From NCBI GenBank assembly GCA_947175875.1, contig CAMWON010000001.1:81809-145808 (forward strand): 64,000 bases of DNA. The letters run 5' to 3'. Shown here piece by piece: positions 1,023-38,775 of the stretch. Position 1 is the first letter of the stretch. Every line of letters begins with the position of its first letter. The translations under genes and the position numbers were made by a program. This DNA comes from an uncultured Alphaproteobacteria bacterium. Lineage in GTDB: Bacteria > Pseudomonadota > Alphaproteobacteria > Rs-D84. The notes under the pieces were generated by a model, which saw only the letters and a program-made list of their open reading frames with translations, was not told the DNA's origin and ran no database searches.

Positions 1023-1697
1023 TTAAAAACCTTTCGGTTTTTCCATTTTCACCGTCGACACCTTTTTATTCAGCGCATCGATAACCTGGTCCGTGATGTC
1101 CAGATTTTCCGCAGACGCGCCCACGCGTGCAAAACGGCCGTCAATTACCATCGACAGGTTCTTTTTTGCAATCGTGCTTTCGATAATCGGGTCCAGATGA
1201 TTTGCCTGAACCTCGTTCAGCGCCTTTTGAAACGCCACGTCAATGCTCTGGGCGCGTTCCGTCAAATCCTGTTGCAGTTTCGCAACGCGGTTTTGATAAT
1301 CAACCACGCGGCGCTGCAGCGCGTCACGCGACAGAACGTCCTGGGATTTTTCGATTTCGGCCTTTTCTTTTTCCAGCGCCTTTTGGTCCCGTGTCAGTTC
1401 GTCACGCAGCTGTGTTTCATAGGCTTCTTTTTGTTTGCGCAAATTTTTCAGCGCGTTCGCATTTGCCTGAATCGCATCCATACGGATAACCGCAATGCGC
1501 AGGTTCGCACCGTTTGCCGCATCGGTTGTTATCGCCTCCATCGCGACGTCCAGATTGCCGGACTTTTTGCTGTTCAGCGCCGATACGGCAAATATTCCGA
1601 TAACGCCGACCGCAACAACCGCTGCGGCGACAATGCCGATTTTCTTATAGTTTCGTGCGGCGGGATTTACCGCAGCATTAGAGGTCTTGTTTGCCAT
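1023..1697 (-). CDS. OmpH/Skp-like periplasmic chaperone (N-terminal signal/anchor, long coiled-coil KEKAEIEKSQ region)
   Basis: 224 aa with an N-terminal hydrophobic segment and a Q/K/E-rich helical core typical of the Skp/OmpH family. An RBS (AAGGACGG) precedes the ATG at 1697. Confidence 0.5.
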   Translation of the reverse strand: MANKTSNAAVNPAARNYKKIGIVAAAVVAVGVIGIFAVSALNSKKSGNLDVAMEAITTDAANGANLRIAVIRMDAIQANANALKNLRKQKEAYETQLRDELTRDQKALEKEKAEIEKSQDVLSRDALQRRVVDYQNRVAKLQQDLTERAQSIDVAFQKALNEVQANHLDPIIESTIAKKNLSMVIDGRFARVGASAENLDITDQVIDALNKKVSTVKMEKPKGF

Positions 1698-1775
1698 GTT
1701 TTCCGTCCTTTGTTTTGTTGATGGGTTCAGTATAACAGTAAAAAAATAAAATGAAAAGGCGAATTTTACAGGATT

Positions 1776-2453
1776 TTAGCGTGCCGGCGCAATGCGGATT
1801 TCAATCCTGCGGTTTGTTAAACGGCCGATGTCATCCTGGGCGGCGATGGGGCGTGCCGACCCGCGCCCGACGATGAACATGCGCGCCGTTTTTACTTTTT
1901 TCTGGGCCAGAAACACCGCCGTGCGCATCGCCATGTCACCGGACAGGGCGGCCGCCGCGTTTGCGTCGCGCATCGCGTCGGTATATCCTGCAATTTCCAT
2001 AAACGTTGCGTCGTATTTGTTCAAAATCTTGGCGATTGTGTTCAGCGTGTCCGCACCGTCCGGCGATATCTCGGCAACGTCCAACTCCATTATGGCGTCG
2101 CGCACCAGTATCACGACGACGTCCGTTCCCGCGCGCTGGACCGATATGCCGGGCTTGCGCAGGGCGTCGTACAATGCAAATTCCAGATTGGCCATATAGG
2201 CAACCGCGGCGATATTGTCGTTTGTGATTTTATCGCCGTATGTCGCGGCGGCGGGCGTCTCAACCGCGTCACCCACCAGGCGCCCGCCCGCGCCCAAATA
2301 CACCGGGCGTTTTGCGACGCGTGCGGCGTCCGTCATGTCGGACATGCTGGCGCCATGCAGATATGTGCGCCATTCGGCCCGCGGCGGGCTGGTATATTGC
2401 GCGCATGATGTTGTGATAACGATTAAAAGCAGTATCGCCGCCAGTTTTTTCAT
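1776..2453 (-). CDS. OmpA-family lipoprotein (C-terminal OmpA/MotB peptidoglycan-binding domain)
   Basis: Lipoprotein signal (LLLIVITTSC). OmpA-C motifs are present: GYTDAMRDANAAAALSGDMAMRTAVFL...NRRIEIRI. Its start codon directly abuts the stop of the upstream pilin gene (TAAATG). Confidence 0.75.
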   Translation of the reverse strand: MKKLAAILLLIVITTSCAQYTSPPRAEWRTYLHGASMSDMTDAARVAKRPVYLGAGGRLVGDAVETPAAATYGDKITNDNIAAVAYMANLEFALYDALRKPGISVQRAGTDVVVILVRDAIMELDVAEISPDGADTLNTIAKILNKYDATFMEIAGYTDAMRDANAAAALSGDMAMRTAVFLAQKKVKTARMFIVGRGSARPIAAQDDIGRLTNRRIEIRIAPAR

Positions 2454-2913
2454 TTATTCCACTATAAAGGAAATCTCGTTTGTACGCGAGGAGAAACAGC
2501 TGTCCGCGGTCGTGTCCGCCGGCATGCCGTTGACGCGAATTTCATTTGCCCAGCCCGGGGCGGTGGTAATGAAATAATCACATTCGCCCGCCGACAGTTG
2601 CGTTAAATTTATAGAGAAAGTCTTGCCGTCCGCACCGGCCGTGACCGACCATGGACCACCCAATGGCGCGCGGTCCGATTTCAATGCGCCCGCCTTTATC
2701 AAATAATCGACCGAGACGCCGGAATAGTCGCCCCGCATCCCCAGCAGCAGGCGCGTGTCGCGGGCCAGCGCCTCCAGGTTTGCCGATGCGACCGCGCGCA
2801 TCTGGTTGCCGCGAATAACGTTGTACAGCGACACCGCGCTGACCGTCATTATTGCGCCGATTGCCATTATGCCGACTATTTCAATCAAAGAGCGTCCGGA
2901 TTCTTCCCGCATG
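2454..2913 (-). CDS. Type IV pilin-like / pseudopilin protein (153 aa) with a prepilin-type N-terminus
   Basis: The N-terminus MREESG|RSLIEIVGIMAIGAIMTVSAVSLYNVIRGNQ has a charged leader, then G, then E at mature position 5, followed by a long hydrophobic helix and Tyr24. An RBS (AAGGGGA) precedes the ATG at 2913. The ORF-track start further upstream would overlap dnaX and is unlikely. Confidence 0.65.
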
Positions 2914-2935
2914 GTGTTTGTCCCCTTGTGTTTGG

Positions 2936-4498
2936 TTATTTGGAAACGCCGACTATCTGTGCGTCCGCAAACAGGTTCATCGCGCTGGCGACCATCGGGT
3001 CCGCCTCCAGCTCTTCCTGTTTTTGTTCTGTTATCGTGTGGGCGTGCTGGGATTGCGCCGCGCGTTCCAGCCGCCATTCGTGCCCTGTTTTATCCGCCAG
3101 CCATGCCGCCAGGCGCGGTGCAAAATCCGCCTCGCCCTTGCGGTCGAAATATTTGATGCATCCGTCCGTAAAATCACAGACCTCAATATTGCTGCTGTAA
3201 TATGAATACAGCAGTATTTCGCGTGCCTCCTGCAACGCCGTCCCCAGTTCCGCGGCCGATGTAATCTGCAGCATCTTTTTTTGCGGCGCCCCATTTTGCG
3301 CGGGCGCCTGCGAGGGCGCACCGGTGGCGGCCGGCTTTTGTGCCGGGGCCGTGTTTTGCGCCTGTTTCATCAAATCTGAAATCGGCGGAATTTCCGCGAT
3401 ATGCATGCATCGCACGATTAGCATGTCAAAGCACTGTTTCTGATTCCCCGCCGCCTGCATTTCGGAAATGGATGCGACCAGAACCTGCCAAATTCGCGAC
3501 AGGGTGTTTAAACTGACCTTTGATATAATCTGCTGCATCTGTTCGCGCATGTCCGCGGTATATGGCGAGTTCACGCATTCCCCCGCGTGCAGCGCCGGAT
3601 GCATGCGCGTGGCCCAGTGTGTCCATTCCATCATGTCACCCAGCAGCATCGCCAAATCCGCGCCGTTTGTATAAATCTGGTCCGCACGTTCCAATGCGGC
3701 GGCCACGTCCCCGCTCAGCAGTGTTTTCATAAAATCGACAACCACGCCGCGGTCCGCGCGCTTTAACATGGCCAGAACCGCCGCCTCGTCGACATTGCCG
3801 CCTGTTTGCGCGATCGCCTGGTCCAGCAAGGACAGACCGTCGCGGACCGAGCCGTCGGCGGCGCGCGCCAGCAGTTCGTTTGCGGCGTCGTCCAGTGTCA
3901 CGCCCTCTTGCGCCGCAATCCATGCAAAATGTTTTTTTAATGTTTCGACCGGCACGCGAACCAAATCAAAACGCTGGCAGCGGGATAGAATGGTGACGGG
4001 CACCTTGCGAATTTCGGTGGTCGCCAGAATAAAGATTACGTGTGCCGGCGGCTCTTCCAGTGTTTTCAGCAGCGCGTTAAACGCCGACGTTGACAGCATG
4101 TGGACTTCGTCGATTATATAAACCTTGTACCGGCCGTTCGTCGGGCGATATTGCGCGGCGTCCAGAATGTCGCGCATATTGTCGACACCCGTGTGTGACG
4201 CGGCGTCGATTTCCAGAACGTCTATATGCTGGCCCGCGGCGATTGCGCGACAGTTTTCGCACACCCCGCACGGTGTCGCGGTGGCCTTGTCCCCCGACAG
4301 GCAGTTCAGCGCCTTTGCGAGAATACGCGCGGTACTGGTCTTGCCCGTTCCGCGAATGCCGGTAAATATGTATGCATGCGCAATGCGGCCCGTGTTAATC
4401 GCGGTGGTAAGCGTTTTTACCAGCACGTCCTGGCCGATTAAAGATTGAAAATCCTGGCTGCGGTATTTGCGTGCCAAAACGGTATAATTCGTATCCAT
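2936..4498 (-). CDS. dnaX: DNA polymerase III subunits gamma/tau
   Basis: The AAA+ clamp-loader motifs are present (GTGKTSTARILAKALNC, Zn-binding Cys cluster, DEVHMLS, SRC). The start is MDTNYTVLARKYR. Confidence 0.93.
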   Translation of the reverse strand: MDTNYTVLARKYRSQDFQSLIGQDVLVKTLTTAINTGRIAHAYIFTGIRGTGKTSTARILAKALNCLSGDKATATPCGVCENCRAIAAGQHIDVLEIDAASHTGVDNMRDILDAAQYRPTNGRYKVYIIDEVHMLSTSAFNALLKTLEEPPAHVIFILATTEIRKVPVTILSRCQRFDLVRVPVETLKKHFAWIAAQEGVTLDDAANELLARAADGSVRDGLSLLDQAIAQTGGNVDEAAVLAMLKRADRGVVVDFMKTLLSGDVAAALERADQIYTNGADLAMLLGDMMEWTHWATRMHPALHAGECVNSPYTADMREQMQQIISKVSLNTLSRIWQVLVASISEMQAAGNQKQCFDMLIVRCMHIAEIPPISDLMKQAQNTAPAQKPAATGAPSQAPAQNGAPQKKMLQITSAAELGTALQEAREILLYSYYSSNIEVCDFTDGCIKYFDRKGEADFAPRLAAWLADKTGHEWRLERAAQSQHAHTITEQKQEELEADPMVASAMNLFADAQIVGVSK

Positions 4499-4573: not shown

Positions 4574-4870
4574 TTATTTCAGATTTGAAATAAAATCCGG
4601 GAAAGAGTTTTCCTCGTCCGCGTCTTCTTCGGTCTCTTCCGTTGCCGGTGCGGCCGCCGCCTTTTCGGACGGTGTGCGTGTGGAATCGATTTTACCCTGT
4701 TCCGCGGCGACGATACGGCCGTAGTGTTCGGCGGTTTGCATCAGACGTTCGCGCTCGATTTCATCTGCTGTCTGGCGCGCCTGGTCCATGTACTGTTTGC
4801 GCTTTTGACGCCATTTGTGACAACGCTGAATCATCAGTCCGACCGAGGATTGGTTTTTTTTGTTTTGCAT
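4574..4870 (-). CDS. Hypothetical small protein with a basic N-half and an acidic C-terminal tail; lies upstream of and co-oriented with dnaX
   Basis: 98-aa ORF with no recognised motif. Its position suggests co-transcription with dnaX. Confidence 0.4.
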   Translation of the reverse strand: MQNKKNQSSVGLMIQRCHKWRQKRKQYMDQARQTADEIERERLMQTAEHYGRIVAAEQGKIDSTRTPSEKAAAAPATEETEEDADEENSFPDFISNLK

Positions 4871-5041: not shown

Positions 5042-6397
5042 TTGTCCAGGCAAAGCGGAAATTTTTTATTACAGGCCCTGCTGGCATTGTCCCTGATTTT
5101 TGCGTTCATACCATTTTTGGCAGAGCGTCTGGCGGCGCGCGAAACAGACGCCCAGATGTATTCCGCCACGCGCCAGGTTGATGTTGCGGTGACCGCCGCG
5201 CGCATATTCATCCGTGAAAATGCGTCCAATATCGGATATGACCGGACGGTTGTCGCCGGCGCTGATTTCGGTGATTTGCTGGAACCGTACGGCCTGCCGC
5301 TGGGGTTTGTGCCGCGCACGGCCCTGGGCCAGGATATCAGCCTGATTATCAACAAGACCCCGCAGGAGGTGACGGCGTATCTTGAACTGTCGGGCGGAAA
5401 TCTGTCCGCGGTGCGTGCGGCGGAACTGGCGCGTCGCATCGGGTTCTATGCGACGCCGGTCGGTTCTGTTATAAATGTCGGCATCGCCCTGGACGAGGGG
5501 TTTTCCGACGTCGTTCGCCGCAATGAAAATAATCTGGAGGCGGGCGCCTTTTTAACCGACCTGGACATGGGCGGGTTTGTGTTTGACAATGCCGGCGCCG
5601 CAATTGCGCGAACCGGCACGTTTAATACGGCGATGATGAATACTTTGTCCGTCTCGGGAACGGAAAACGGCCGCAAGGTCCGCAACAAGATAGAGAATTT
5701 GTCCGCCACGCGCGCGGTGTTCCAAAGCAAAAGCGGCGAGGCCGCACTGTCGCTGGTTCGCGGAACGTTAACCGCGGACAGTGTCGATGCGCGAACCGTC
5801 GCGCGGTTTGGCGATGCGGGGAATTTCACTGCGGACACCGCGTCCGTGTACGAGTTTTCCATGACGGCGGGCCGTACGGGATTTTCGGGCCCGGGCGCCT
5901 GGAACGTCCGCGGCAACGTCGTGTCCGACAGAATAAATTTCAGTGTGGAGCGCCTGGACGTGTCGTCGTATATAAATGTCGCCCGCGGCCAGGACGTTTA
6001 TATAAATCCCGATGATTTGGAATACAGCGCGCGCAGCGGAATAGAAACCGACACCTTAATCGCATCCAATGTCACGATGCGCGACCAGACGTCCGACGCG
6101 TTGTCGTCTGGCGGGAACGGTGCGGTTGTTATTGACGTCCGCCCGGCCGGAACGTCTTATCTGCCGGACGCATATGTTAACAATGTCGACAACGCCGCGT
6201 TCGAGATTATCGCGGCCCCCGACGACGCGGACGGCAAGACAGTTGACTGCAAGGCGGTCGTGTCACAGCTTGACGGTTCTTATAATCAGCGCAGCCTGTC
6301 GCAGTACATAATATGCCAGTATGTGTATTGGCAGCGGCTGGAAATGCGAATGAACATAATACAGTGTCTAAAGGAAGGCCGCGGTGACTGCATTTAA
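5042..6397 (+). CDS. Large pilin-like protein 1 (451 aa), class III-signal-like N-terminus with Q at mature position 5 (GspK/PilX-like in lacking E5); TTG start
   Basis: N-terminus MSRQSG|NFLLQALLALSLIFAFIPFLAE. The body is Gly/Ala/Thr/Asp-rich. A strong RBS precedes the start. It overlaps the next gene by 14 nt. Confidence 0.55.
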   Translation: MSRQSGNFLLQALLALSLIFAFIPFLAERLAARETDAQMYSATRQVDVAVTAARIFIRENASNIGYDRTVVAGADFGDLLEPYGLPLGFVPRTALGQDISLIINKTPQEVTAYLELSGGNLSAVRAAELARRIGFYATPVGSVINVGIALDEGFSDVVRRNENNLEAGAFLTDLDMGGFVFDNAGAAIARTGTFNTAMMNTLSVSGTENGRKVRNKIENLSATRAVFQSKSGEAALSLVRGTLTADSVDARTVARFGDAGNFTADTASVYEFSMTAGRTGFSGPGAWNVRGNVVSDRINFSVERLDVSSYINVARGQDVYINPDDLEYSARSGIETDTLIASNVTMRDQTSDALSSGGNGAVVIDVRPAGTSYLPDAYVNNVDNAAFEIIAAPDDADGKTVDCKAVVSQLDGSYNQRSLSQYIICQYVYWQRLEMRMNIIQCLKEGRGDCI

Positions 6398-7601
6398 CAA
6401 AGGCGTTTTTGCAGAAGGGTCGCGTGGCGCCGGTTTAACGGAGGCGTTGCTGGCGATGGCGATTGTCGGCATCGCGGCGCCGTTTGTTTACAGCCAGGTT
6501 GCGGCCACCACGCGCAGTGCGGCCGACATTCGGACCGCGTCGCGGATTATCGATATGCGCGGGCCGGCATTGAATTATGTCCGTATGAATGGCGACGCGT
6601 GGCCGGACACGGCCCAGATACGTTTGACGCCCGAAGATTTGGCGCGGATTGCGGACGGCGCCACCGCCGGATTCATAGACAAATATACAGTGTCCGGCGC
6701 CGGTGTTACCGACATATATCTGGCGTTTGATTTGGGGACGGACCGTGTGCGCACGGCGTCCATTGCGCGCAATATCGGAATAGATGCCGCGGTTGTCGGC
6801 GACGACGGTATCGCATACGGTGCGTCGTGGGCCGTAACCGCGCCGGATTTCATGCCGGGCGATTTGATATACAGAATATCTCGTGATGTCACGGGCGAGG
6901 ATACGGCAAAATATTTGCATCGCGGAACATCGGGCGAAGACGGCCTGAATGTCATGCAGCGCGATTTGAACATGGGCGGCCACAACGTCTATGACATCGG
7001 CGGTGTTGTTGCAAAATCCGCCAAGATAAACGGTGCGACCGCCATGTTCGTCGAAACACAAAGTGTTGCGGCCGACGCGGCGTATTTTTCATCGGGCGCC
7101 AATATAGACGGCGGCGTGGCGTCATTGGGCGCGTTGCGCGTGACCGGCGACGTGACGGGCTTTCGCAATATTGTGGCGACGACGCTCAACGGTGCCGGAT
7201 ACACCACGTCGGGTCGTGTGATTACAGACCGCGCAACGGTCACAAATTCGGTCAATGTCGCACGCGATTTGACGCTGAAATCGGACACCACCCGCACAAT
7301 CAGCGGTTTTGACGGCATCACGGCCAGTACTGTTGCGACGCCGTTCATATCCGCGGACGAAATAATTTTTTATGATAATTTTGGACTGACTCTGTCGGGG
7401 GAGCTGTTAATGTCAACGACGGCGCCGCTGAAAATCGGTTCGTGGACATTCCCATCGACAACGCCGCCAAAGTTTTCAAGATTGACACTGTCGCGCGCCG
7501 AATATCCGGCCGCGGTTCGAAAAACGGAATTTGCACCGATAATGCGGCGCGGATGGATGGACGGGCTTATTGAAAATGAAACTGCGCAGAACAATTTTTA
7601 A
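6384..7601 (+). CDS. Large pilin-like protein 2 (405 aa), prepilin-type N-terminus with E5; GTG start after RBS AAGGAAGG
   Basis: N-terminus ...SRG|AGLTEALLAMAIVGIAAPFVYSQ has G-x4-E, a hydrophobic helix and a conserved P-F. It overlaps both flanking genes. Confidence 0.6.
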   Translation: MTAFNKGVFAEGSRGAGLTEALLAMAIVGIAAPFVYSQVAATTRSAADIRTASRIIDMRGPALNYVRMNGDAWPDTAQIRLTPEDLARIADGATAGFIDKYTVSGAGVTDIYLAFDLGTDRVRTASIARNIGIDAAVVGDDGIAYGASWAVTAPDFMPGDLIYRISRDVTGEDTAKYLHRGTSGEDGLNVMQRDLNMGGHNVYDIGGVVAKSAKINGATAMFVETQSVAADAAYFSSGANIDGGVASLGALRVTGDVTGFRNIVATTLNGAGYTTSGRVITDRATVTNSVNVARDLTLKSDTTRTISGFDGITASTVATPFISADEIIFYDNFGLTLSGELLMSTTAPLKIGSWTFPSTTPPKFSRLTLSRAEYPAAVRKTEFAPIMRRGWMDGLIENETAQNNF

Positions 7602-8886
7602 CGGGCCGTCTGAATGTGGCGGCATGCTGGTTGAATTGATGCTCAGCGTTGCGCTGGCCATGATTGTGATACCTTTTGTTTTCAGATATCATCAGCGCGC
7701 TGTCCGTCGTGCCGAAAATATTGCCGTTTCCCGCCAGATGGAGGGGGTGCAAAGCGCGCTGGAACGTTACATTATGGCGCATCGCGATGAATTGCTGGCG
7801 CCGGTTGGTAAAAATATAACACGTGTTGCGCTGGCGGATTTGGTGCCGTTCGGCGTGTCCGAGGATTTGGTCTCCGCCGCCGGTGACAAGTATCAGCTGC
7901 GCGTGCTAAAGGCCGCCGATTTCAACAGCCAGGCGACCCTGCAGGGTGTGGTCGTATTGAATGACGGCGACATCAGTCCGTTGCGCACGCGCGAGATAGT
8001 GAACATCGCCGGCGACCGCGCGGGTTTTCTGGATTCTGGGCGTGCATACGGTGCGTTCGGCACGTGGAACAGTGCGGCACTGGATTTGGGTCTGGGTGAC
8101 GGGGGCGGAATTGTGGAAACGACGTCCGCCCTGCGCGACAATGCAAAATATTTGTGGCGCGTGCCGTCCACGGATGCGTCCGATGCGACGATGCTGTCGG
8201 CGCTGTCGCTGGGCGGGCACGATATCGCGTCGGCGTCTTTCTTTAACAGCCGCAGCGCCCGCTTTGACGAATTGCTGTCCGTGGGTGAAATCGCCGCCGG
8301 CAACATAATTTTTCAAAACAGAACCTCGATTGATAAAAAGTTGAACGCCGTTTCGTCAACCGTGTCGGGCGCGCTGTCATCGGACTCTAAAAATATGGAC
8401 GTCGCAGGTAAGTTTTCATTGGCCGATTTGGGAAAGTTTTCGGGCTTTTCCGTGTCGGACCTGTACGTGACAAACATGACGCTATCCGGTATCAGCGTCA
8501 GTGACACCGGCGATGTCGCATTGCTTAAAATAAACCAGGCGCTGGACATGACGTCGGGTCGTATCGACGCAATGTTTGTGACGGTGGGGTTTGCGGGGTC
8601 CATAACGCCGCGCCTTGTCGTGCGCAATCGTATCGAAGATTCGATAAATTCGTCTTATTACTGGGATGCGTCGCGCGGTGTGGCGAATTTTTCAGACGTA
8701 TCCTTTGCGGAATTGTCGCGTATGGCGCCGCTGGCCCTGGCGCGCGAGGGGCGGGGCACCACGGCCGCGCAAATATTCGGCGCGGTTGCGGCAAACAAGA
8801 ATGCGACGGCGTCCGATTACATGAATGCGATAACGAAAATCCAGGAAGAGGTTCGTAAAAAATATCGCGCCTTGAATTTGCAATGA
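7576..8886 (+). CDS. Large pilin-like protein 3 (~436 aa), prepilin-type N-terminus with E5
   Basis: N-terminus MKLRRTIFNGPSECG|GMLVELMLSVALAMIVIPFVF closely resembles the G|FTLIELMIV consensus. An alternative TTG start lies at 7570. Confidence 0.65.
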   Translation: MKLRRTIFNGPSECGGMLVELMLSVALAMIVIPFVFRYHQRAVRRAENIAVSRQMEGVQSALERYIMAHRDELLAPVGKNITRVALADLVPFGVSEDLVSAAGDKYQLRVLKAADFNSQATLQGVVVLNDGDISPLRTREIVNIAGDRAGFLDSGRAYGAFGTWNSAALDLGLGDGGGIVETTSALRDNAKYLWRVPSTDASDATMLSALSLGGHDIASASFFNSRSARFDELLSVGEIAAGNIIFQNRTSIDKKLNAVSSTVSGALSSDSKNMDVAGKFSLADLGKFSGFSVSDLYVTNMTLSGISVSDTGDVALLKINQALDMTSGRIDAMFVTVGFAGSITPRLVVRNRIEDSINSSYYWDASRGVANFSDVSFAELSRMAPLALAREGRGTTAAQIFGAVAANKNATASDYMNAITKIQEEVRKKYRALNLQ

Positions 8887-8907: not shown

Positions 8908-9420
8908 ATGAAAGCGGTTTGTGATTTTTGCAAGACGGAATACAGCACCCCCGCAGGGGTGCGCGGCCGTGTGCGCTGTGCGGTGTGCGGGTACGAATGG
9001 ATTATATCCCCGGCGGCGCGGCGCGGCGCATGGCTGACGTTTATTGCGGCGGCGACGGCCGCCTTGGCCGCAATAGTGTTTTCAATCGCGGTAATCACCC
9101 GGCACCAGGTCCAGACCGCGGCCGCATCCCGTCCGTTGGTTGCGACGGTCACGGATATTCATTCCGTTATTGATGCGGCGGGCGTTTCTCACTTTGTGGT
9201 ATCGGGCCGCGTTACGAACCAGTCGGCCGAGATATACGGTGTTCCCGATTTGATAATTGTATCTCGTGATGAAAACGGAAACGAGGTTTCGCGTCAAAAG
9301 TTCATGCCGTCGGCAACATTGCTGGATTCCGGCGCCTCGGTTGAATTTTCGCATACCCTGTCCGCTGCGTCGGACGGCGTGAAAAAGATAACCCTGGAAT
9401 TAAAAGACCAAACGGATTGA
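8908..9420 (+). CDS. ZitP-like protein: N-terminal MJ0042-type zinc ribbon (CxxC...CxxC), one TM helix, C-terminal DUF3426-like periplasmic domain
   Basis: The sequence runs CDFCKTEY...RVRCAVCGYEW, then the TM segment WLTFIAAATAALAAIVFSIAVI, then a beta-rich C-terminal domain. This architecture equals Caulobacter ZitP / DUF3426-family proteins. Confidence 0.7.
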   Translation: MKAVCDFCKTEYSTPAGVRGRVRCAVCGYEWIISPAARRGAWLTFIAAATAALAAIVFSIAVITRHQVQTAAASRPLVATVTDIHSVIDAAGVSHFVVSGRVTNQSAEIYGVPDLIIVSRDENGNEVSRQKFMPSATLLDSGASVEFSHTLSAASDGVKKITLELKDQTD

Positions 9421-9422
9421 AA

Positions 9423-9893
9423 ATGAAAAAGATAATATCCTCGTTTGTTTTGTGTGCCGCAATATGCGCCGGTGCGCACGGGGCGGCGACAACGGCGCCC
9501 GCGCCGCGCGTCAGCATTTTTTCCACCAGCACCGACTGGGAGGCTGTAACGGGCCTGTCGCTGCATGAATATCGCGGCAAGTTCAAATATTCCGACAACA
9601 ACAAACTGGTCGGCCGCGGTCTTGTCTTGTATTATCTGGACGGTTTTCCGTGCTATGGCCTGGGCGAAGGGGTTCGCGTATGGCTGGGGCCGCGCGGTGC
9701 CCACGACGGCGAATTGCGCGTTGCATGCGTGCATGCCCCGACCGAGATACGGTTTGCCTGGCGCAATGCGGCCCGTGACGCGGACCAGGCCGCGACCGAA
9801 GGGATTTTGACGTGTCCCGTGACCGGCGACCGTGAATTTACAATTGATTTGTCCCGCTGTACGCGTGGACCTGATTGGGACAGTTACAAATAA
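9423..9893 (+). CDS. Hypothetical secreted protein (signal peptide, 4 Cys)
   Basis: Starts MKKIISSFVLCAAICAGAHGAATTAPAP. Its ATG overlaps the upstream TGA. No recognised domain. Confidence 0.5.
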   Translation: MKKIISSFVLCAAICAGAHGAATTAPAPRVSIFSTSTDWEAVTGLSLHEYRGKFKYSDNNKLVGRGLVLYYLDGFPCYGLGEGVRVWLGPRGAHDGELRVACVHAPTEIRFAWRNAARDADQAATEGILTCPVTGDREFTIDLSRCTRGPDWDSYK

Positions 9894-10939: not shown

Positions 10940-13900
10940 ATGAGTCTCTTTAAAAAATCAATTGGTTTTCTGGCTGTTTTGACGGCATTTCCGGCGTCAT
11001 ATGCATTGACGGCACGTCCCAGTGTCATCGGCACCGCGTCGGCGCGTATGCCCACAATGACGGCGCTGATTACAAATACCGGCACGTCCGGCACGGGTTC
11101 CACCACAACATCGACGTTGCTGGCCAATGCCGAATGCATTGACGCATACACGTCTTGTATGAAGGGTGGCGACGCCTGTGGTTCTGATTTTGAAGAGTGC
11201 ACGAACAAGGTTCTGTTCCACGGCAAAATGCCTCAGTGTTTGTCCACTTTGGCCCAGTGCAGCACGGCCGGCGTGACCAGCCTGTTCGGTACCGGCACGG
11301 TAACGGCGCTGTCCACCGTTGCGACCAAGAACAGCTATGGCGAGGTGACGGATTACACATACCCCACAGACGGCAGTGTTCTGGGACAATTGATTATCGG
11401 TGCGGCGATATCGAACAAATATGACACATCCACCTGTGTAAAGCGCTATACGTCTTGCTTAAAGAAAGACAGTGTCTGCGGCAATGATTTTGAACTTTGC
11501 ACAACCGACAAAGAATTTAGAAAACAGCGCGTATTCTGCGATTCCACTTTGGCCCGTTGCCAGTCAGAGGGCCTGATAGAACTGTTCGGCTCCGCCAACA
11601 CTTCGACCACGCCCAACGCGACCAGCCGCATTGGCGAAATGATTGCCGAAGGCGCGGCATTGGCGGCTGTAAACGCGGTATCCACCTGCTACAAGGTTGT
11701 GGACCAGTGTATCTTGAACGCATGTGCGGCGAATCCGTACAAGTGCTTTGAAAACAGCACGAACACCACCGTAAATTTGGTTGAGGCCATCAACACCGGC
11801 GTCGCCACGGCGGAAAACACGGCCGCATCCACAATTGCGAACGTTACATCCGGCATGGATATCGTAACGAAATCCAACGTCGCGTCTTATATCAAGAACA
11901 GCTGTCTGGATACAATCGGATCCAACAAATACTGCTATGCCACGTTTATCGGCAACGGCCAGATGCCGACCGCGTCCCAGCTGAAGGACGAAGACAACCA
12001 GGAAGAAATCTATGACGAGGCGTATTCCGCCCGCATGAGCAGCGCCATGAAGGCCAAGATTTCCGACTTGGTCGATCAGTTTGACACCAAGGCAAAGCAA
12101 AAGTGCACCGAAACAATCAAGACATGCGTAATGCGCGTCTGCGGTTCCGGTTCTGGCGCGGCCTGCTATTCCCAGGTGTTCGGCAATCGTGACAAGTCCA
12201 TTAACAACAGCGTTACATATCCGGAACTGCAGACCGGCTGTGCGGCGGTTGTCAACACCGATGCGTATTGTAAGTATGCCGCGGCAAATCCGAATACAAC
12301 CGGCGGTTATACATATTCTTATATAAACAACGATGCGTTCAGCATTCTGTTCCCGGAATATGAATCCGGCGGCAACGACCCGATTGGCGTTATCTCTGCG
12401 TTGAACGCGACGCTGGCCAACAGCTACAGCGATGCGGCCATCGCCACGATGAAGCGCCAGTGCCAGGCGGTCGCAACCAGTTGCGTAAAATCCATGTGCG
12501 GCGCGGATTATCAGAACTGCTATCGCAACCGTACGGACGTTTATTCTTCTTTGACCAACACCGGCGATTCGTCGTTCGATAAAAGCATGAACAAGGTTGG
12601 CGGCGTTCTGGATTACACAATCGTTTTGGGCCTGTGCCTGGATACGGTTAAGAACGCGTCTGTCTGCGAAGAACATCTGGCGATTGAACGCAACAAATTG
12701 AAAATTGCAAACAACAGCAGTGCGTCCGTATGGGGCGGTGCGAACAGCACGCGCGAAGGCTGGATTGACGCCGGCTCTGCCACGGCCGTGACAGCGACCA
12801 GCGAACAGGTTGCGGCCACCGACGAAAACGGCAATGCGCTGTGCACAACCAAGGGCGGCGGCGACCAGGGCGTATGCTACAGCGTTGATGCCTCCGGCAA
12901 TATTTATGACCAGCCTGTATACATCTCATATACGACATATGTTGAATCACAGGCGGCGTCGACCCTGTTCAAGGATTTGATTTACGACCTTGAGAAAGAG
13001 GCCCAGGCGAAATATAACGCGAAATTGACGAAACAGCAGAACATGTGCATGTCGTCCAACCAGGGTGGCGTTATGGGCAATCGTGAAATGGGCAGCACGT
13101 TCCTGTGGGTAAAGCTGAAATCCAACACGGTGCCAAAGGCATACCCGGTATCGGGTTTAAAGCCGTCGCAGTTCACGGCCAGCAACGACCTGTACGGTTC
13201 ATTCTGCCGTGTCCGCGTAACACTGCAGTCCGATGACAAAAAGATTCAGGACGTTATCGCCAAGGGTACCGATTGGGCCACGGCATATTTCGCGGCGGGT
13301 GATACGTTTACCTGCGGCTCCTGGATTCCGGAAAAAGCCCTGACGCAGTTGGCGGATGCAGTGGCGGCGGATGCCCGCGCGGACGAGGCCCGTGGCAACG
13401 GCAGAACCAAGGCTTGGATGGCTGTTCTGGGAACTGTCGCCGGTGGTGCATTGGGTGGTGTCGCAACCAACAAGATGCAGGACGGCGCATTCTTGGGCGG
13501 ACTTCTGGGAACCACTGGCAGCACTAAAAGTAGTGATGTGGCGGAACAATTGGGTGTGTGTGCTGGTGCTGCACGTGGCTATCAAGATGCAAAATCTGTT
13601 GATGACAAGGCCTCTTATTTGGCTCGTGCATCACGTGCGGTTAAACAACTGCAAGGTGCTGACAAAAATAAATTCGCAACGGATAACATTTCTAGCAAAT
13701 GTGCCAGAGCCACAGATGCAAGAAGTTGTTTAAGTGATTTGTTGTATGCGGCCAGCGTTGCCCATCGGGACTATGCTGATCTTGCTGATAAAACAGTAAC
13801 TGCCGTATCTGGCACTGCACGGGCTACAGAAAAGTCCACAACAGTAAAGAGTTCCGGTCAAGTTTTGACTGCAGATAGCTTGAGAGCACAGGTTCCTCAG

Positions 13901-14515
13901 TATACAAGACATGAATTGGCCGGCGTATCATGCGAATTCAATTGTGATGCAGTTGTTTCTGGCAAATATACTGGTACCAATACAGCGGTCTGCGGAAGTG
14001 TCACACAAAAATCTTGGGTGCCTACAACCGGAAAGTATTGCATGACAGAATCTAATGGTGGAATTCAAAAAGATGCAGATGTACGTTATATTGAATATAC
14101 TTATACTGTATATTACACCGATAATGATGCTGTTGCGTATAATCAAACATTAACAAATAGTGCATCTCAGGTCACTCAACATTCTAATGATGTAGAAACA
14201 GCGCGTAAAAAAGCGAATAGTGCGATGGCTGATTTGGAACAAGCGTGTGATTTAAGCGCACTGAATTCCGACCAGGCTAAGAAAGACGCACAAAAGCGTT
14301 CCATCACAACGGCCGTCGGTGCGGGTGTTGGTGCGATTGCGGGCGGTGTGCTGGCCTATCAGGCGACCAAGAGCATCCAGGATTCCAAACTGGACAGCGT
14401 TGAAAAAGCCGCCTATGACGAATGGATGAACGAAGTCGGTAATCATATCCGTTGCTTTGTCGGTGGCGACGAGGTCGGTATGTACGGCGATATCATCAGC
14501 ACGTCGATGGAGTAA
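10940..14515 (+). CDS. Giant (1191 aa) secreted/membrane-anchored Cys-rich repeat protein of unknown function
   Basis: It has a signal peptide and duplicated CxxYTSC[ML]K...C G[SN]DFE[EL]CT...LFG modules plus further C-x5-C-x3-C motifs. Two glycine-zipper TM-like segments are present (TVAGGALGGVA..., GAGVGAIAGGVLA). A low-GC block lies at 13500-14230. Confidence 0.7.
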   Translation: MSLFKKSIGFLAVLTAFPASYALTARPSVIGTASARMPTMTALITNTGTSGTGSTTTSTLLANAECIDAYTSCMKGGDACGSDFEECTNKVLFHGKMPQCLSTLAQCSTAGVTSLFGTGTVTALSTVATKNSYGEVTDYTYPTDGSVLGQLIIGAAISNKYDTSTCVKRYTSCLKKDSVCGNDFELCTTDKEFRKQRVFCDSTLARCQSEGLIELFGSANTSTTPNATSRIGEMIAEGAALAAVNAVSTCYKVVDQCILNACAANPYKCFENSTNTTVNLVEAINTGVATAENTAASTIANVTSGMDIVTKSNVASYIKNSCLDTIGSNKYCYATFIGNGQMPTASQLKDEDNQEEIYDEAYSARMSSAMKAKISDLVDQFDTKAKQKCTETIKTCVMRVCGSGSGAACYSQVFGNRDKSINNSVTYPELQTGCAAVVNTDAYCKYAAANPNTTGGYTYSYINNDAFSILFPEYESGGNDPIGVISALNATLANSYSDAAIATMKRQCQAVATSCVKSMCGADYQNCYRNRTDVYSSLTNTGDSSFDKSMNKVGGVLDYTIVLGLCLDTVKNASVCEEHLAIERNKLKIANNSSASVWGGANSTREGWIDAGSATAVTATSEQVAATDENGNALCTTKGGGDQGVCYSVDASGNIYDQPVYISYTTYVESQAASTLFKDLIYDLEKEAQAKYNAKLTKQQNMCMSSNQGGVMGNREMGSTFLWVKLKSNTVPKAYPVSGLKPSQFTASNDLYGSFCRVRVTLQSDDKKIQDVIAKGTDWATAYFAAGDTFTCGSWIPEKALTQLADAVAADARADEARGNGRTKAWMAVLGTVAGGALGGVATNKMQDGAFLGGLLGTTGSTKSSDVAEQLGVCAGAARGYQDAKSVDDKASYLARASRAVKQLQGADKNKFATDNISSKCARATDARSCLSDLLYAASVAHRDYADLADKTVTAVSGTARATEKSTTVKSSGQVLTADSLRAQVPQYTRHELAGVSCEFNCDAVVSGKYTGTNTAVCGSVTQKSWVPTTGKYCMTESNGGIQKDADVRYIEYTYTVYYTDNDAVAYNQTLTNSASQVTQHSNDVETARKKANSAMADLEQACDLSALNSDQAKKDAQKRSITTAVGAGVGAIAGGVLAYQATKSIQDSKLDSVEKAAYDEWMNEVGNHIRCFVGGDEVGMYGDIISTSME

Positions 14516-25469: not shown

Positions 25470-26522
25470 TTATTTTGTTGTTTTTGCCATGCGGCGCAAA
25501 ATGGCGTAATGCCGCATGAACTCGGTCCCCGGACCGGCCGGATAACCCATATACCGCTGTCCGTCCGGGATATTGCGGAATACACCGGACTGCGCACCAA
25601 CCTCTGCGTCATTTCCGATATGCACCCCATTTGCAATTCCAACATGCCCGCCCAGCAGCGCCCGGTCGCCAATAACCGTGCCGCCGGCGATTCCAACGCC
25701 CGATGCCAAAAAGCATTCCGCGCCGATAACGACACCGTGCGCAATCTGGCACAGGTTGTCAATCTTTGTCCCGTCGCCCACGCGCGTATCCGTCATTGCG
25801 CCGCGGTCAATGCATGTGTTCGCACCGACCGACACGCGGTCGCCCAAAACAACGCGGCCCGTGTGCGGGATAAATACGTTGTGCCCGTCCTGGCGGGTGT
25901 ATCCAAAACCGTCTTTGCCGATAACGGCGCCGGCGTTGATTACGCAATCCGCGCCGATTGTGGCGTTTTCAATGTGCGCGCCCGTCTGCACGATTGTGCC
26001 GCGCCCGATTGTGACGTTCGGCCCAATGTATGCACCGGGATATATTTTTACGTCCGGCTCTATCACTGCGCCGCGTTCAATTGTTGCGAACTGGGCCACG
26101 TAAACGGTTTTCTTTTTGCGAAAGAACACCGTGCGGTCGATAACCGCGCGGCGGTCGATGCCGTAACGCGGCTTTTCCTTATAAATTTCGCCCAGGATTT
26201 TTACAATGTTTCCGCGTGGGCTGTCCGTTATCAACAGTGTCGCCCCCTGTGGCGCGTGTTTCGCCATCTCGGGCTGCACCAAAATAACGGATGCGCGGGT
26301 GTTTTCCAGCACCTCTATCGGCAGAATTTTAAACGCCGCACTGTTTTGCTCGGTCGAATAAAACGCCAGCTGGCCCGGTTTTGCATCGGCAATCGGCGCC
26401 ACGCCATTAACCGGCGTCGCGGCGTCCCCGCGCAGTTCCAATCCAAATTTTTCGGCGATTTCGCCAGCGGTCGTTTTCGTGGCCTGACCGCGGCCGACTA
26501 AAGACATAATTATTCTAAACAT
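25470..26522 (-). CDS. lpxD: UDP-3-O-(3-hydroxyacyl)glucosamine N-acyltransferase LpxD
   Basis: Long array of left-handed beta-helix hexapeptide repeats plus a LpxD N-terminal domain. The start is taken at [10 protein letters not shown]. Confidence 0.9.
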
Positions 26523-26572
26523 GCGGTGATTATATCCGCAAAAAAAGAAAATAAAAGAAAATTCGTGCACAC

Positions 26573-27042: not shown

Positions 27043-28944
27043 ATGAAATCTTTTACACACATTTTGTTGGTGGCACTGATGCTGGGGCCGTGTGGCGCCG
27101 CGTTTGCAGCCGCACCGTTGTCAGGTACGTTGGGCAGTAATTTAACCGCCTATAATCCGAACGGCGGGGTAATGAACAATAATGAGTGGAACTCCATGAT
27201 GAACAGTCGCAGTGGGTCCGGCGCGGCCGCCACGGCGGACTTTGGAAATTGTAATTCGGTTATTCTGCGGTGTGCATCACCAAAATGTGCAAACGGCGGA
27301 TGCACGTCGATTGATGTTGCGATGCCGATTGTTGCGGGTTGCGTTGCGTCAAACGCTGCATGCAAACAGTATGGCGATGAATTGACCCAGTATATCGCGG
27401 CCCAGCTGGTTGCAAATTCAACGGCAAAAACAAACGCACAGATGGCGGCGGCGCAAAATGCCGCGGCCGAACAAAGCGCCATGCAAATGCAACAGATGCA
27501 GGCCCAGATGCAGCAGATGCAGGCGGACATGGCCGCACAGAATGCCCAGCAGATTGCGCAGTTGCAGTCTGCACTGGAAGAACAACAGCGCGCGACCGAG
27601 GCCGCCCGTGCCGAAGCGGCGGCCGCCGCCACCGCGGCGTCAAACGCCGCCCAGTCGTCTGCCACGGTTACCGCGCCGGTTTCCGCCGCCACCACCACGG
27701 CATCGTCCGGCGCCACCCCCACAACGGTTATGGAGGGGTTGTCCGAGGCGCAGCGTATCGCCGCCAATGCCGGCGTATCCGCCGATATATTGGCCCGCGA
27801 ACAGGTCGCCGGCCAGATTATGACGTCGCTGGAACGGGCCCAGGTCAATTTGAACAAGGCCAAGGCGGCGATGCAGAACGCATTTTCGTATGCCGGGTGC
27901 ACAACATCGGGCGACAACTGTGTCGGACCAAAGCGCGTGTCTGTTTTCCGCCAAAAGGCGATGGAGTTTTTCGAACCGTATGACGCGGTTCTGGACGAAT
28001 TGTATGACGCACTGGTTACGGCCCAGTCCGTCGGTGTTGATATTACCGATATTTACATGATGTTAAACGGCAGCTGTAACGTCTGGGGCGAGTATCTGTG
28101 TAATGGCGGTACGGTGTTGGATAATTCTGGTGCCGGAAATACGGAAAAAGTTTGTAAAACAACGACTGATGCAACAGGCAAAGAAACCACAACATGTGAA
28201 ACGGTCACGAAAAGTTCCACGCAGTCCGGCGGGAACATGGTTTGGGCTAAATATGATAAAGACAGCTGCCCGGTTAATGGCGGACAATCGAAAAAGTATG
28301 GTTGGTCGCGCGGTTTAAACAAGGAGTGTTATCAAGACACAACCATCCCGCCCGAAGATTCAACGGCCTGTACACTTAACCGTACACTGACGGATATGGA
28401 TTATGTTCAGCGCAATTTCCTGTTTGCCGAAGCGGGCGATATAGACGAACACGTTCGTATCGGATGCGCGTCGTCTGCGCTGGAAAACAGCAAGTTCTTC
28501 CGCAACCGCAAAAAGGGCTCCAGCATTGATATTGAGACACTGGAACGCATCGTTTCCCAGGATGCGCCGGCAATGTTCGGTTCCAACCGATTTGGCGCCT
28601 CAAGCGACCCGGCGATTGACGGTCCGAAATACTGTGCGGTCAATGCCACCAGCTATATGGATTTGCAAAAGGCGGCATCGCTGAAAAAACTGCCCGCGCG
28701 CGTCTGCGTCAGTGACAAGTCGCTGGCCGCAAATCTGTCGGCGAACGGATTGCTGTCCATGTCCGATATCGATGCGATGATAAAGGCGGGCGGAAACAGC
28801 AACAGCTCCGGCGTGACGGGTAATACGGACCCGAAATATTCGGACAAGGAAACTTGCAATAAATGGCAGGGCGAATGGAGTAATGGCGCCTGCAAGTGCG
28901 ACGGCAAAAAACAATGGTGGAACGGTGTTTGTGTTTTCAGATAA
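27043..28944 (+). CDS. Secreted Cys-rich protein (633 aa) with a Met/Gln-rich coiled-coil segment
   Basis: Signal peptide MKSFTHILLVALMLGPCGAAFA. An N-terminal Cys cluster (CNSVILRCASPKCANGGC) is followed by MQMQQMQAQMQQMQADMAAQNAQQIAQLQ and then Ala/Thr-rich and Cys-rich C-terminal domains. Confidence 0.65.
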   Translation: MKSFTHILLVALMLGPCGAAFAAAPLSGTLGSNLTAYNPNGGVMNNNEWNSMMNSRSGSGAAATADFGNCNSVILRCASPKCANGGCTSIDVAMPIVAGCVASNAACKQYGDELTQYIAAQLVANSTAKTNAQMAAAQNAAAEQSAMQMQQMQAQMQQMQADMAAQNAQQIAQLQSALEEQQRATEAARAEAAAAATAASNAAQSSATVTAPVSAATTTASSGATPTTVMEGLSEAQRIAANAGVSADILAREQVAGQIMTSLERAQVNLNKAKAAMQNAFSYAGCTTSGDNCVGPKRVSVFRQKAMEFFEPYDAVLDELYDALVTAQSVGVDITDIYMMLNGSCNVWGEYLCNGGTVLDNSGAGNTEKVCKTTTDATGKETTTCETVTKSSTQSGGNMVWAKYDKDSCPVNGGQSKKYGWSRGLNKECYQDTTIPPEDSTACTLNRTLTDMDYVQRNFLFAEAGDIDEHVRIGCASSALENSKFFRNRKKGSSIDIETLERIVSQDAPAMFGSNRFGASSDPAIDGPKYCAVNATSYMDLQKAASLKKLPARVCVSDKSLAANLSANGLLSMSDIDAMIKAGGNSNSSGVTGNTDPKYSDKETCNKWQGEWSNGACKCDGKKQWWNGVCVFR

Positions 28945-29779
28945 ATCAGAAACGAGGATAAGAAAATTACGCATCGCGCGCATTTTGACGGCGTCGCTGG
29001 TCTGTGCCGTGTTGACCGGGCCGGCACTGGCCGACGATGGCTGCGAGAACGAGTCCAATGACCGTATCGCACCGGAATTGGCATTGTGCAGTGTTCATGC
29101 ATATAACATCGGCATATCCACAAACCCGGCCGGCGCAGACAAGCAGCTGATGAAGGAAATCGTCGCGCTGAAAACCACCATTATCACCCAGCAGATGAAT
29201 AAACAATACGAATACATGGATGCCATGATTCGCCGCTTTAAGACCCAGCTGGAAAAAGCGGTTCTGACGACCAAGCTCCAGGCGGCCGGTGCCGCGCCGA
29301 CCAATACTGGGGGCTCTTCATCGTCCGGCGGGTCTTCTTATGGCGGCTCCGGCGGGAGTGGTGGCGGCCGCGCCAACAACGGCCTGGCCAATGCCGAAGA
29401 CTGTATGAACTCATATACGAATTATTCGGATACGTATCAGTGTCTGTTGCGCAATGTCGCAAAAATATCGTCTGCGGTGACATCGGGCGATTTGGGAATG
29501 GCGCGTCGCCAACTGGCCACCGATTTGACAACATTGGGCAGTTATAACCGTTTGGCCATAAGCTGTGGCCAGAATCAACAGAATTGCAGCGTGAACGTGC
29601 CGTGTCAGAACGCATTGTCGGAAAAAGATGCCAATGGTAAAAATACAACATGTGCAACCGCCAAAAGCAGTGGCGGCCGTCGTGACGATATCACCGCGTG
29701 TATCGGCCAGATGCGCGCATGTATTGTTGCAAATAACGAGGCTTTGTCGAATAATTCGAACCAGCAGTCACGCCCGTAA
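28925..29779 (+). CDS. Secreted protein with a Gly/Ser-rich linker and a Cys-rich C-terminus; start uncertain (GTG 28925/28931 or TTG 28985)
   Basis: Signal-like ...RKLRIARILTASLVCAVLTGPALA then DDGCENE. GGSSSSGGSSYGGSGGSGGG linker. 11 Cys in total. Confidence 0.5.
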   Translation: MFVFSDKSETRIRKLRIARILTASLVCAVLTGPALADDGCENESNDRIAPELALCSVHAYNIGISTNPAGADKQLMKEIVALKTTIITQQMNKQYEYMDAMIRRFKTQLEKAVLTTKLQAAGAAPTNTGGSSSSGGSSYGGSGGSGGGRANNGLANAEDCMNSYTNYSDTYQCLLRNVAKISSAVTSGDLGMARRQLATDLTTLGSYNRLAISCGQNQQNCSVNVPCQNALSEKDANGKNTTCATAKSSGGRRDDITACIGQMRACIVANNEALSNNSNQQSRP

Positions 29780-30355: not shown

Positions 30356-31003
30356 ATGAAACAAATTGCTATTTTTGTCGCGGCGGCGGCTGTTCTGGCC
30401 GGGTGCACGACTGTGAACCCCTATACGGGCCAGTCCCAGACGTCCAAGGCCGTATGGGGCACCGCAATTGGTACCGCGGCCGGTGCGGCGACAGGTGCGC
30501 TGGTATCCAAAAATCATGGCGCGGGTGCGATTGTGGGCGGTCTGGCCGGTGCGGCTGTTGGTGGCGGCGTCGGATATTATCTGGACGTTCAAGAGGCGGA
30601 ACTTCGCCAAGAATTGGCATCGACCGGTGTTGGGGTTGAGCGTACCAATGACAGCATTCGTTTGATTATGCCGGGCAATATCACGTTTAAGACCGATTCT
30701 TCGGATATCAACGCCAATTTCTATGCGACGTTGAATTCCGTGGCCAAGGTTTTAAAGAAATACAGCAATTCAACCGTAATGGTTTCCGGCTACACCGACA
30801 GCACGGGCAGCATGGAATACAACCAGAACTTGTCGCGCAGTCGTGCGTCGGCGGTCGCCGCATACCTGCAGGGCCAGGGTGTCGCTGCCAACCGGTTTGA
30901 AATTTTGGGCATGGGCCCGTCAAACCCGATTGCGTCGAACGACACGGCCGCGGGTCGCGCCCAGAACCGTCGCGTGGAAATCAAGATTATTCCGAACAAA
31001 TAA
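30356..31003 (+). CDS. OmpA-family lipoprotein (glycine-zipper N-region plus OmpA C-terminal domain)
   Basis: Lipobox LAGCTT. Gly-zipper GTAIGTAAGAATGALV...GGLAGAAVGGGVGYY. OmpA-C motifs (SGYTDSTGSMEYNQNLSRSRASAVAAYL...NRRVEIKI). Confidence 0.8.
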   Translation: MKQIAIFVAAAAVLAGCTTVNPYTGQSQTSKAVWGTAIGTAAGAATGALVSKNHGAGAIVGGLAGAAVGGGVGYYLDVQEAELRQELASTGVGVERTNDSIRLIMPGNITFKTDSSDINANFYATLNSVAKVLKKYSNSTVMVSGYTDSTGSMEYNQNLSRSRASAVAAYLQGQGVAANRFEILGMGPSNPIASNDTAAGRAQNRRVEIKIIPNK

Positions 31004-34059: not shown

Positions 34060-35560
<1,501 letters not shown>

Positions 35561-35645
35561 ATAGAGAATACCGTTTCCACGAAAACGGTCAAATCCAAAG
35601 CGACTGTCTGAACATCTCTTTTTGAAAATGGGTAAAATTCTGCTG

Positions 35646-36021: not shown

Positions 36022-38775
<2,754 letters not shown>

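Follow-up and report, generated by a model that had tools for sequence, protein, structure and literature searches.

The window analysed here is a stretch of 64,000 nucleotides (nt) of DNA from an uncultured Rs-D84 ("Candidatus Enterousia"-type) alphaproteobacterium, and all positions are counted from its start. Directly behind dnaX, on the minus strand, lies an open reading frame (ORF) of 152 amino acids (aa) that encodes a diverged protein of the type IV pilin superfamily, closest to the type IVb pilins, and its stop codon abuts the start of a gene for an OmpA-domain lipoprotein. The identical 152-aa pilin is encoded on the NCBI metagenome-assembled genome (MAG) GCA_029060095.1, contig JAIDUQ010000001.1; dnaX is also called as 520 aa in the JAIDUQ010000001.1 record. 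The genes and features of this part of the locus are the following (arrows mark the prepilin cleavage position here and below).

2936..4498, minus strand: dnaX (DNA polymerase III tau/gamma), 520 aa from the ATG at 4498; Pfam DNA_pol3_delta2 (2e-44), DNA_pol3_gamma3, ATPase lid and DUF3646.
2454..2912, minus strand: the 152-aa type IV pilin-family ORF (MREESGRSLIEIVGIMAIGAIM...), with ATG at 2912-2910 and TAA at 2456-2454.
2820..2912, minus strand: class-III (prepilin-type) signal, with leader MREESG, predicted cleavage after Gly6 and mature start RSLIE.
2496..2582, minus strand: the Cys111...Cys139 pair, invariant in orthologues and distant relatives alike; the segment between the two Cys is the most variable one and resembles a D-region loop.
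2451..2456, minus strand: the TAAATG stop/start junction of the pilin and OmpA-like genes, an exact abutment, with the ATG of ompA at 2453-2451.
1776..2453, minus strand: the OmpA-domain lipoprotein gene, 225 aa; Pfam OmpA, 6e-11, 43 bits against a cut-off of 27.2, residues 127-209.
1023..1697, minus strand: an OmpH/Skp periplasmic chaperone gene, 224 aa; Pfam OmpH, 8e-16, 59 bits against a cut-off of 32.4.

The dnaX gene is intact, carries the alphaproteobacterial DUF3646 tail and is the first gene of a conserved dnaX-pilin-ompA unit. Its TAA stop lies at 2936-2938, the pilin ORF begins 23 nt further on, and a purine-rich, Shine-Dalgarno-like AAGGGGA is found 5' of the pilin ATG at 2912-2910. 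Neither the dnaX-pilin junction nor the pilin-ompA junction, nor the stretch between them, showed a terminator-like site. The ompA and OmpH/Skp genes are separated by 78 nt, and a sigma-70-like site (1757..1729) stands ahead of skp. The initial annotation had described this TAAATG junction, an OmpA-C-domain lipoprotein and an OmpH/Skp-like gene after it; the junction is exact, and both domain scores are above their cut-offs. The pilin length that it gave, 153 aa, is 152 aa in the window and 152-153 aa among the orthologues. Could the pilin ORF be a chance frame, or one with a wrong start? A 207-aa frame from 3077 overlaps dnaX, and the orthologues all begin M-R/K-x-E-S-G and keep their length of 152-153 aa, so we rejected both possibilities.

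The N-terminus of the 152-aa protein, MREESG↓RSLIEIVGIMAIGAIMTVSAVSLY, has Gly at -1 and Glu at +5, continues as a hydrophobic helix of 22 residues up to mature Tyr24, and satisfies the prepilin pattern save at +1. Six residues, G6, R7, E11, Y30 (mature Tyr24), C111 and C139, show no variation across 29 aligned orthologues. The 52 distant relatives examined (19-32% identity) likewise all keep G(-1), E(+5) and both Cys. On the strength of these residues, we would expect cleavage after Gly6 and a disulfide between Cys111 and Cys139.

The AlphaFold2 (AF2) model of the protein (predicted local distance difference test, pLDDT, 74; predicted template modelling score, pTM, 0.63) consists of a helix over residues 6-60 and a four-strand sheet, and thus presents the lollipop fold of type IV pilins, in which the long helix at the N-terminus packs against four antiparallel strands. 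When the model was compared with the PDB using Foldseek, the top 19 matches were all type IV pilins. The best of them were CofA (2.5e-4, TMq 0.69), TcpA (4.8e-4) and PilS (4.5e-2), all ranked above any type IVa pilin. Similarly, the family profile, searched against PDB sequences, found the N-terminus of geopilin (E 0.0037) and TcpA (E 0.056) with the cleavage site in register, the G↓R of the 152-aa pilin falling on the G↓F of geopilin. The NCBIfam PRK10557 match to its N-terminus is weak (E 0.036). Among the 52 distant relatives, 33 match Pfam PilS (best 4e-19), 27 Bundlin (best 4e-21) and 21 N_methyl; furthermore, the protein P0182, which matches the family profile with an E of 6e-11, bears precomputed Bundlin and PilS matches. 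These results indicate that the 152-aa protein belongs to the pilin family, since motif, fold and homology via remote relatives all lead there. The earlier description of a textbook prepilin N-terminus is borne out, and structure prediction, which had been suggested as a check, returned a pilin fold.

How widespread is this pilin? A scan of species representatives placed the family in 193 species-level genomes, all of them from uncultured gut Alphaproteobacteria and many labelled Candidatus Enterousia. The orthologues are of near-fixed length (152-153 aa) and have a median identity of 58%. A profile search of 1.84 billion representatives gave 479 matches at E<=1e-3. Arg occupies the +1 position in 124 of 149 representatives of the wider family at 50% identity, in the pattern G↓RS[LM][IV]E, and a literature search with N-terminal motif strings of the family, such as this one, found no paper that contains them. 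In the distant relatives, the leader has a median length of 9 aa. Per-region entropy, computed over 82 distinct orthologues of the 152-aa pilin, was highest in the Cys-Cys segment (1.66 bits) and lowest in the alpha-beta loop (residues 61-87; 0.77 bits), which is more conserved than even the membrane helix. Such conservation of the loop would fit a constrained interaction surface. The family is a previously unannotated, type IVb-like pilin branch that is common in host-associated uncultured Alphaproteobacteria.

The seven neighbourhoods examined for distant pilin relatives contain these pilins as orphan genes among housekeeping genes, four of them beside uvrC. Relatives with Arg(+1) stand divergently beside uvrC in other uncultured Alphaproteobacteria and 'Rickettsiales' MAGs (L085, L087, L091 and L093). 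One of these loci, L085:8377-11145 (GCA_017642585.1), has five tandem pilin paralogues between uvrC and rluD, which carry identical leaders (MKKQTKKQQSG↓RSMIEM) and diverged globular domains.

Compared with the type IVb major pilins (V. cholerae TcpA, CofA of enterotoxigenic E. coli, Salmonella/R64 PilS and the bundlin BfpA of enteropathogenic E. coli), the 152-aa protein shares the G(-1)/E(+5) signal, a +1 residue other than Phe, the long alpha1 helix, the antiparallel sheet and the C-terminal Cys pair. On the other hand, it is atypical in its invariant Arg at +1, its non-basic leader of 6 residues and its mature size of only 146 aa, the type IVb leader having ~15-30 residues and the mature protein ~170-200 aa, and its PilS score stays under the cut-off. 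Furthermore, type IVb genes cluster with assembly genes, whereas the 152-aa pilin gene sits in the dnaX operon beside ompA and skp. A second comparison is with GspG and the E. coli Ppd proteins, which it resembles in size, in conserved sequence, in minor subunits that include one without Glu5 and in the weak PRK10557 match. It differs from GspG in that it has no T2SSG match, possesses a Cys pair, finds type IVb pilins as its fold matches and has no gsp genes nearby.

To describe the genomic setting, we compared 84 orthologous dnaX-pilin-ompA loci, one per species, for synteny and junctions. The dnaX, pilin and OmpA-like genes are adjacent in all 84. Between the pilin stop and the start of ompA, 52 loci have a gap of 0 nt, 12 have -1 and 10 have +1, and in 79 loci the distance stays within 4 nt. 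From the dnaX stop to the pilin gene, the spacing runs from -1, found in 44 loci, to +28 nt. The TAAATG junction had been taken as translational coupling that makes partners of the pilin and the lipoprotein. The junction is real, but dnaX and the pilin gene overlap as well (44/84), and so do unrelated neighbours in the window. Stop/start overlaps elsewhere in the window occur at rlmN/surA, surA/lptD and lptD/lptG, and also at triad A/B and triad B/C, the triad being three large pilin-like genes on the plus strand that are described below. As these overlaps are commonplace in the genome, the junction by itself does not argue for a pilin-lipoprotein complex.

The remaining neighbours are attached less firmly. 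The triad block is adjacent in 71-77 of the 84 loci; together with a DUF4167-like gene it has moved away from dnaX-pilin-ompA in L039, L073 and L084, and five further loci lack it within 10 kb. Since the adjacency of dnaX, pilin and ompA holds in 84/84 and the linkage to the triad can be broken, the stable unit is dnaX-pilin-ompA, and the proposal of one regulon split across both strands finds no support in these comparisons. The OmpH/Skp gene is adjacent in just 66/84 loci. The skp gene is usually linked to lpxD-fabZ in an outer-membrane-biogenesis context, and this linkage is seen in L092:1837-4116, on a 1.04-Mb Rs-D84 scaffold with the order dnaX-pilin-ompA-skp-lpxD-fabZ; the lpxD of the window is apart from skp, at 25470..26570 on the minus strand. 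Skp is thus probably an ordinary housekeeping chaperone outside the pilin system, contrary to its earlier inclusion in it.

In the canonical arrangement, dnaX is followed by ybaB-recR, and the pilin and lipoprotein genes, two unrelated envelope genes, were said to replace them here. Neither gene follows dnaX at this locus, and tblastn found neither in the window, using E. coli queries and a partial Rs-D84 YbaB. The E. coli ybaB and recR queries gave no matches even where a YbaB gene exists, and ybaB was searched again with the Rs-D84 YbaB fragment. In 12 of the 84 loci, ybaB lies 1-10 kb downstream on either strand, as in L043 (dnaX-pilin-ompA-pnp-ybaB); it is therefore displaced, not lost, and replacement holds for the position behind dnaX only. 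recR was not found in a search that used only the weak E. coli query. As a separate observation, in L002:16936-19185 (also in L003 and L004), a gene for a VirD4/TraG-type coupling protein of type IV secretion is located ~7 kb downstream of the dnaX-pilin cluster. L002 is a 63%-identical relative, and a ybaB gene lies just past its VirD4/TraG-type gene.

The 225-aa lipoprotein is a diverged paralogue of the YiaD family. It matches NCBIfam YiaD with 1e-26 and 94 bits, under the cut-off of 175, and the closest solved structures to its OmpA-like domain are YiaD (2k1s, 8.5e-16) and P. aeruginosa PA0833 (6jfw, 6e-13). Orthology to Pal was considered and rejected (23 bits against a cut-off of 125). 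With E. coli YiaD and PA0833 it shares the lipoprotein signal, its orthologues carrying L[SA][AG]C lipoboxes, the C-terminal OmpA-like domain and the Asp of GYTD. It differs from them by having no glycine zipper and by a new, clade-specific N-terminal motif after the lipobox Cys, C-x-PYxSPxRxxWxxYLxGASFxDM. In peptidoglycan-binding lipoproteins of the YiaD/Pal type, the conserved Asp and Arg of GxTD ... LSxxRA contact the diaminopimelate of peptidoglycan. In the 225-aa protein, the Asp is retained, and Met (LSGDMA; LSxDMA in all orthologues) stands in the alignment where LSxxRA has its Arg; the preceding Asn is also replaced. The lipobox and the OmpA domain of the proposed peptidoglycan-anchoring lipoprotein are thus both present, but the anchoring is uncertain because the Arg has given way to Met.

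Two other proteins with OmpA-like features were noticed in the window. A canonical glycine-zipper/OmpA lipoprotein paralogue of the YiaD type, with an intact LSRSRA, is encoded at 30356..31003 (plus strand). A 445-aa secreted protein without a Pfam match is encoded at 53052..54389 (plus strand), between murG and a ComF-like gene, and its C-terminus is OmpA/MotB-like by eye (LAARRLAIVEQVLRDTGV).

Upstream of dnaX lie the triad and its companions.

4574..4870, minus strand: DUF4167-like gene, 98 aa, between dnaX and the triad; weak Pfam DUF4167 match (4e-4).
5042..6397, plus strand: triad A, 451 aa, N-terminus (S/R)G↓NFLLQALL with Gln at +5; N-terminus conserved across loci, motif scan.
6384..7601, plus strand: triad B, 405 aa, RG↓A(G/S)xTE (RG↓ASxTEVLL) with Glu at +5; conserved N-terminus, motif scan.
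7570..8886, plus strand: triad C, ~436 aa, RG↓SMLVELLL with Glu at +5; conserved N-terminus, motif scan.
8908..9420, plus strand: zinc-ribbon/DUF3426-like membrane protein; weak family matches only.
9417..9893, plus strand: 158-aa secreted protein; weak family matches only.

The pilin had been described as divergent from the triad around dnaX. The two do lie on opposite strands, but the DUF4167-like gene stands between dnaX and the plus-strand triad, so the divergent pair is DUF4167/triad-A. None of the triad proteins belongs to a Pfam or NCBIfam family. Triads B and C are paralogous (27% identity over 235 aa, E 1e-7), and the profile of triad C, searched against the PDB, matched pilin N-termini solely (E 0.02). 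Among window ORFs of 100 aa or more, the G-x4-[E/Q]-14-hydrophobic motif is present 5 times, compared with 0.52 times in shuffles. Four of the five occurrences are the N-termini of the 152-aa pilin and of triads A, B and C, the triad ones lying within 6 kb; there is no other pilin-like N-terminus in the 64 kb. Since the AF2 model of triad C is poor, its pilin nature is read from the N-terminus alone.

In the tip complexes of type II secretion and type IV pili, the subunit without Glu5 is the terminal one, and GspK lacks Glu5. Triad A is a candidate tip subunit by analogy, because it too is without Glu5. We also take the large type IVb minor pilins CofB, TcpB and R64 PilV to be comparable with the triad in their size of 400-450 aa, their pilin-type N-termini and their proximity to a small pilin, as a lead only: no sequence or structural match between them and the triad was obtained, and the triad comprises three different proteins, one of them with Gln5.

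The two small genes at 8908..9893 overlap the triad operon at its end, and their synteny with the triad is kept in ~70/84 loci. Large Cys-rich proteins with signal peptides and no Pfam match are encoded at 10940..14515, 27043..28944, 28883..29779, 32104..33585 (minus strand), 41192..41773 and 44215..46302; the 1191-aa member of this set travels with the triad block in most relatives. The large Cys-rich proteins are possibly surface proteins or secretion substrates. Elsewhere, the window contains a complete rRNA operon at 34059..38975 (plus strand; 16S, a spacer tRNA at 35645..35718, 23S and 5S), directly followed by a ParA/MinD-type ATPase gene (39034..40158, plus strand), and an EcoRI-type adenine methyltransferase gene (31112..31951, minus strand; Pfam 4e-71), near which no restriction enzyme was identified. 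The ComF-like protein (54383..55111, plus strand) has a double zinc ribbon and a phosphoribosyltransferase domain.

Could the 152-aa protein be the building block of a filament on these cells? A 2025 paper placed Enterousia in the GTDB order Rs-D84 and described the genomes of this order as smaller than ~1 Mb, without flagella, respiration or nucleotide biosynthesis and with few biosynthetic pathways (PMC12306168). The same paper found Rs-D84 / "Ca. Enterousia" to be widespread in the guts of animals and humans and proposed a symbiotic or parasitic life that depends on partner cells (PMC12306168). We consider it probable that the 152-aa protein polymerises into a type IV filament serving contact, uptake or secretion. 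It would enter the inner membrane via the class-III signal, be cut after Gly6 by a prepilin peptidase and, by means of its Glu5-bearing N-terminal helix, assemble into a pilus or pseudopilus. This filament would be primed or tipped by the three large triad proteins, with triad A, lacking Glu5, as the terminal subunit. It might then attach the cell to a partner, or take part in uptake or secretion across the envelope. The YiaD-type lipoprotein may act with the filament in the envelope, or its gene may just happen to be co-transcribed, and genome compaction may have locked the pilin gene into the dnaX transcription unit. What the data show directly is that the protein belongs to the pilin family, with its fold, its conservation, the operon geometry and the synteny; cleavage and polymerisation are inferred, as are the parts played by triad and lipoprotein and the function of the set. 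The main argument that processing and assembly still operate is indirect, namely that Gly(-1) and the membrane-buried Glu(+5) are invariant in three separate protein families.

Several observations weigh against a polymerising filament subunit. The 152-aa protein scores 18.3 bits with Pfam PilS (PilS_N), below the cut-off of 22, and has no N_methyl (PF07963/TIGR02532) match at E<=1. Its invariant Arg at +1 breaks the usual rule of a hydrophobic residue (Phe, Met, Leu and similar) at this position. The conserved alpha-beta loop is unlike the hypervariability, driven by immunity or phages, of exposed major pilins. In addition, dnaX is expected to yield a low-abundance product, and an overlap with it would be odd for an abundant major pilin. 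The AF2 model of triad C has a pLDDT of 44 and is confident only in the N-terminal third (the N-terminal helix and first sheet), and the Arg replacement in the lipoprotein is seen in alignments to YiaD, PA0833 and other solved OmpA-like domains.

A Pfam scan of every window ORF of at least 140 aa not nested inside a longer one, with unassigned ORFs inspected by eye, revealed no assembly ATPase, platform protein, prepilin peptidase or secretin in the window, and none of its ORFs resembles PilB, PilC, PilD or PilQ. Pilus assembly machinery was likewise not found in the 10-kb flanks, and a regular-expression scan of 1.5 Mb of orthologous loci, which looked for the Walker A and His boxes of PilB/VirB11 and for GxGDxK of PilD, returned 0 matches. 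The neighbourhoods of the seven distant pilin relatives also contained none. The published survey reports type IV pilus genes solely for another lineage, not for Rs-D84 (PMC12306168). The absence of machinery is not thereby established, because only ~8% of a genome is covered. Consequently, the major-pilin candidate of the initial annotation holds as a pilin-family protein, but "major" is plausible and unproven because no assembly machinery was found.

The same low expression and conserved loop would suit a periplasmic pseudopilus like that of the type II secretion system, with the 152-aa protein as a GspG-like subunit and the triad as a GspI/J/K-like tip, which would export folded, disulfide-rich surface proteins through the outer membrane. 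The size and conservation of the subunit are typical of pseudopilins, the alpha-beta loop being its most conserved region with no hypervariability. One minor subunit lacks Glu5, as does GspK, and the many large Cys-rich secreted proteins in the window have no known export route. Low-level expression from the dnaX operon would also suit such a structure. However, the 152-aa protein has no T2SSG Pfam match, and in both structure and family it matches type IVb pilins best rather than GspG. GspD, GspE and GspF were not seen in the window or in the motif-scanned loci, and the minor subunits, at 400-450 aa, are far above the size of GspI or GspJ. We regard a GspG-like pseudopilus as unlikely, though it is the best placed of the alternatives.

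Alternatively, the 152-aa protein might be a relic or repurposed pilin fold without a motor, that is, a periplasmic protein anchored in the inner membrane and linked statically, within the envelope, to the co-translated OmpA-like lipoprotein. The DNA covered contains no machinery, the literature reports none for Rs-D84 (PMC12306168), and the pilin and ompA genes are inseparable in 84/84 loci. The Arg at +1, the short non-basic leader and the highly conserved periplasmic loop point in the same direction. However, the pilin gene is just as inseparable from dnaX, so close linkage is no sign of a complex, and with ~8% of a genome covered, the absence of machinery is not established. The invariant Gly(-1) and buried Glu(+5) are, moreover, hard to explain without cleavage and helix-helix assembly. 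Such a static link strikes us as quite improbable.

A more speculative idea, to which we give little credence, extends the motor-less principle to all four pilin-like proteins: the canonical peptidase, ATPase and platform would have been lost or never possessed, and the quartet would work in a new manner, for instance as an envelope-spanning tether or conduit made together with the co-translated OmpA-like lipoprotein. If so, expression from the dnaX operon would tie its production to replication, and it could be a contact organelle of partner-dependent cells.

Finally, the pilin might belong to a competence pseudopilus that takes up DNA to supply the cell with nucleotides, in which case its place in a replication operon would be functional. 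This reading would accord with the lack of nucleotide biosynthesis in Rs-D84 (PMC12306168), the ComF-like gene at 54383..55111 and the pilin relatives that adjoin the DNA-repair and replication genes uvrC, dnaA and dnaN, with DprA in L085, but it is very improbable, as ComF homologues are widespread in non-competent bacteria, housekeeping neighbours are expected in compact genomes, ComEC, ComEA and a secretin were not seen in the window, and ComP_DUS matches are weak and limited to 2 of the 52 distant relatives.

Returning to the proposed type IV filament, how much weight the finding carries hinges on whether assembly machinery exists elsewhere in the genome. Annotation pipelines label the four pilin-like genes "hypothetical", without a Pfam domain, and pili are not reported for Rs-D84 in the survey (PMC12306168). 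The comparison defines a large type IVb-like clade of Arg(+1) pilins, with at least 124 clusters at 50% identity, which raises a question about prepilin peptidase specificity. It also provides an unusually stable case of a pilin gene wired into an essential replication operon. For Rs-D84 itself, the four conserved pilin-like genes are a candidate cell-contact, uptake or secretion apparatus.

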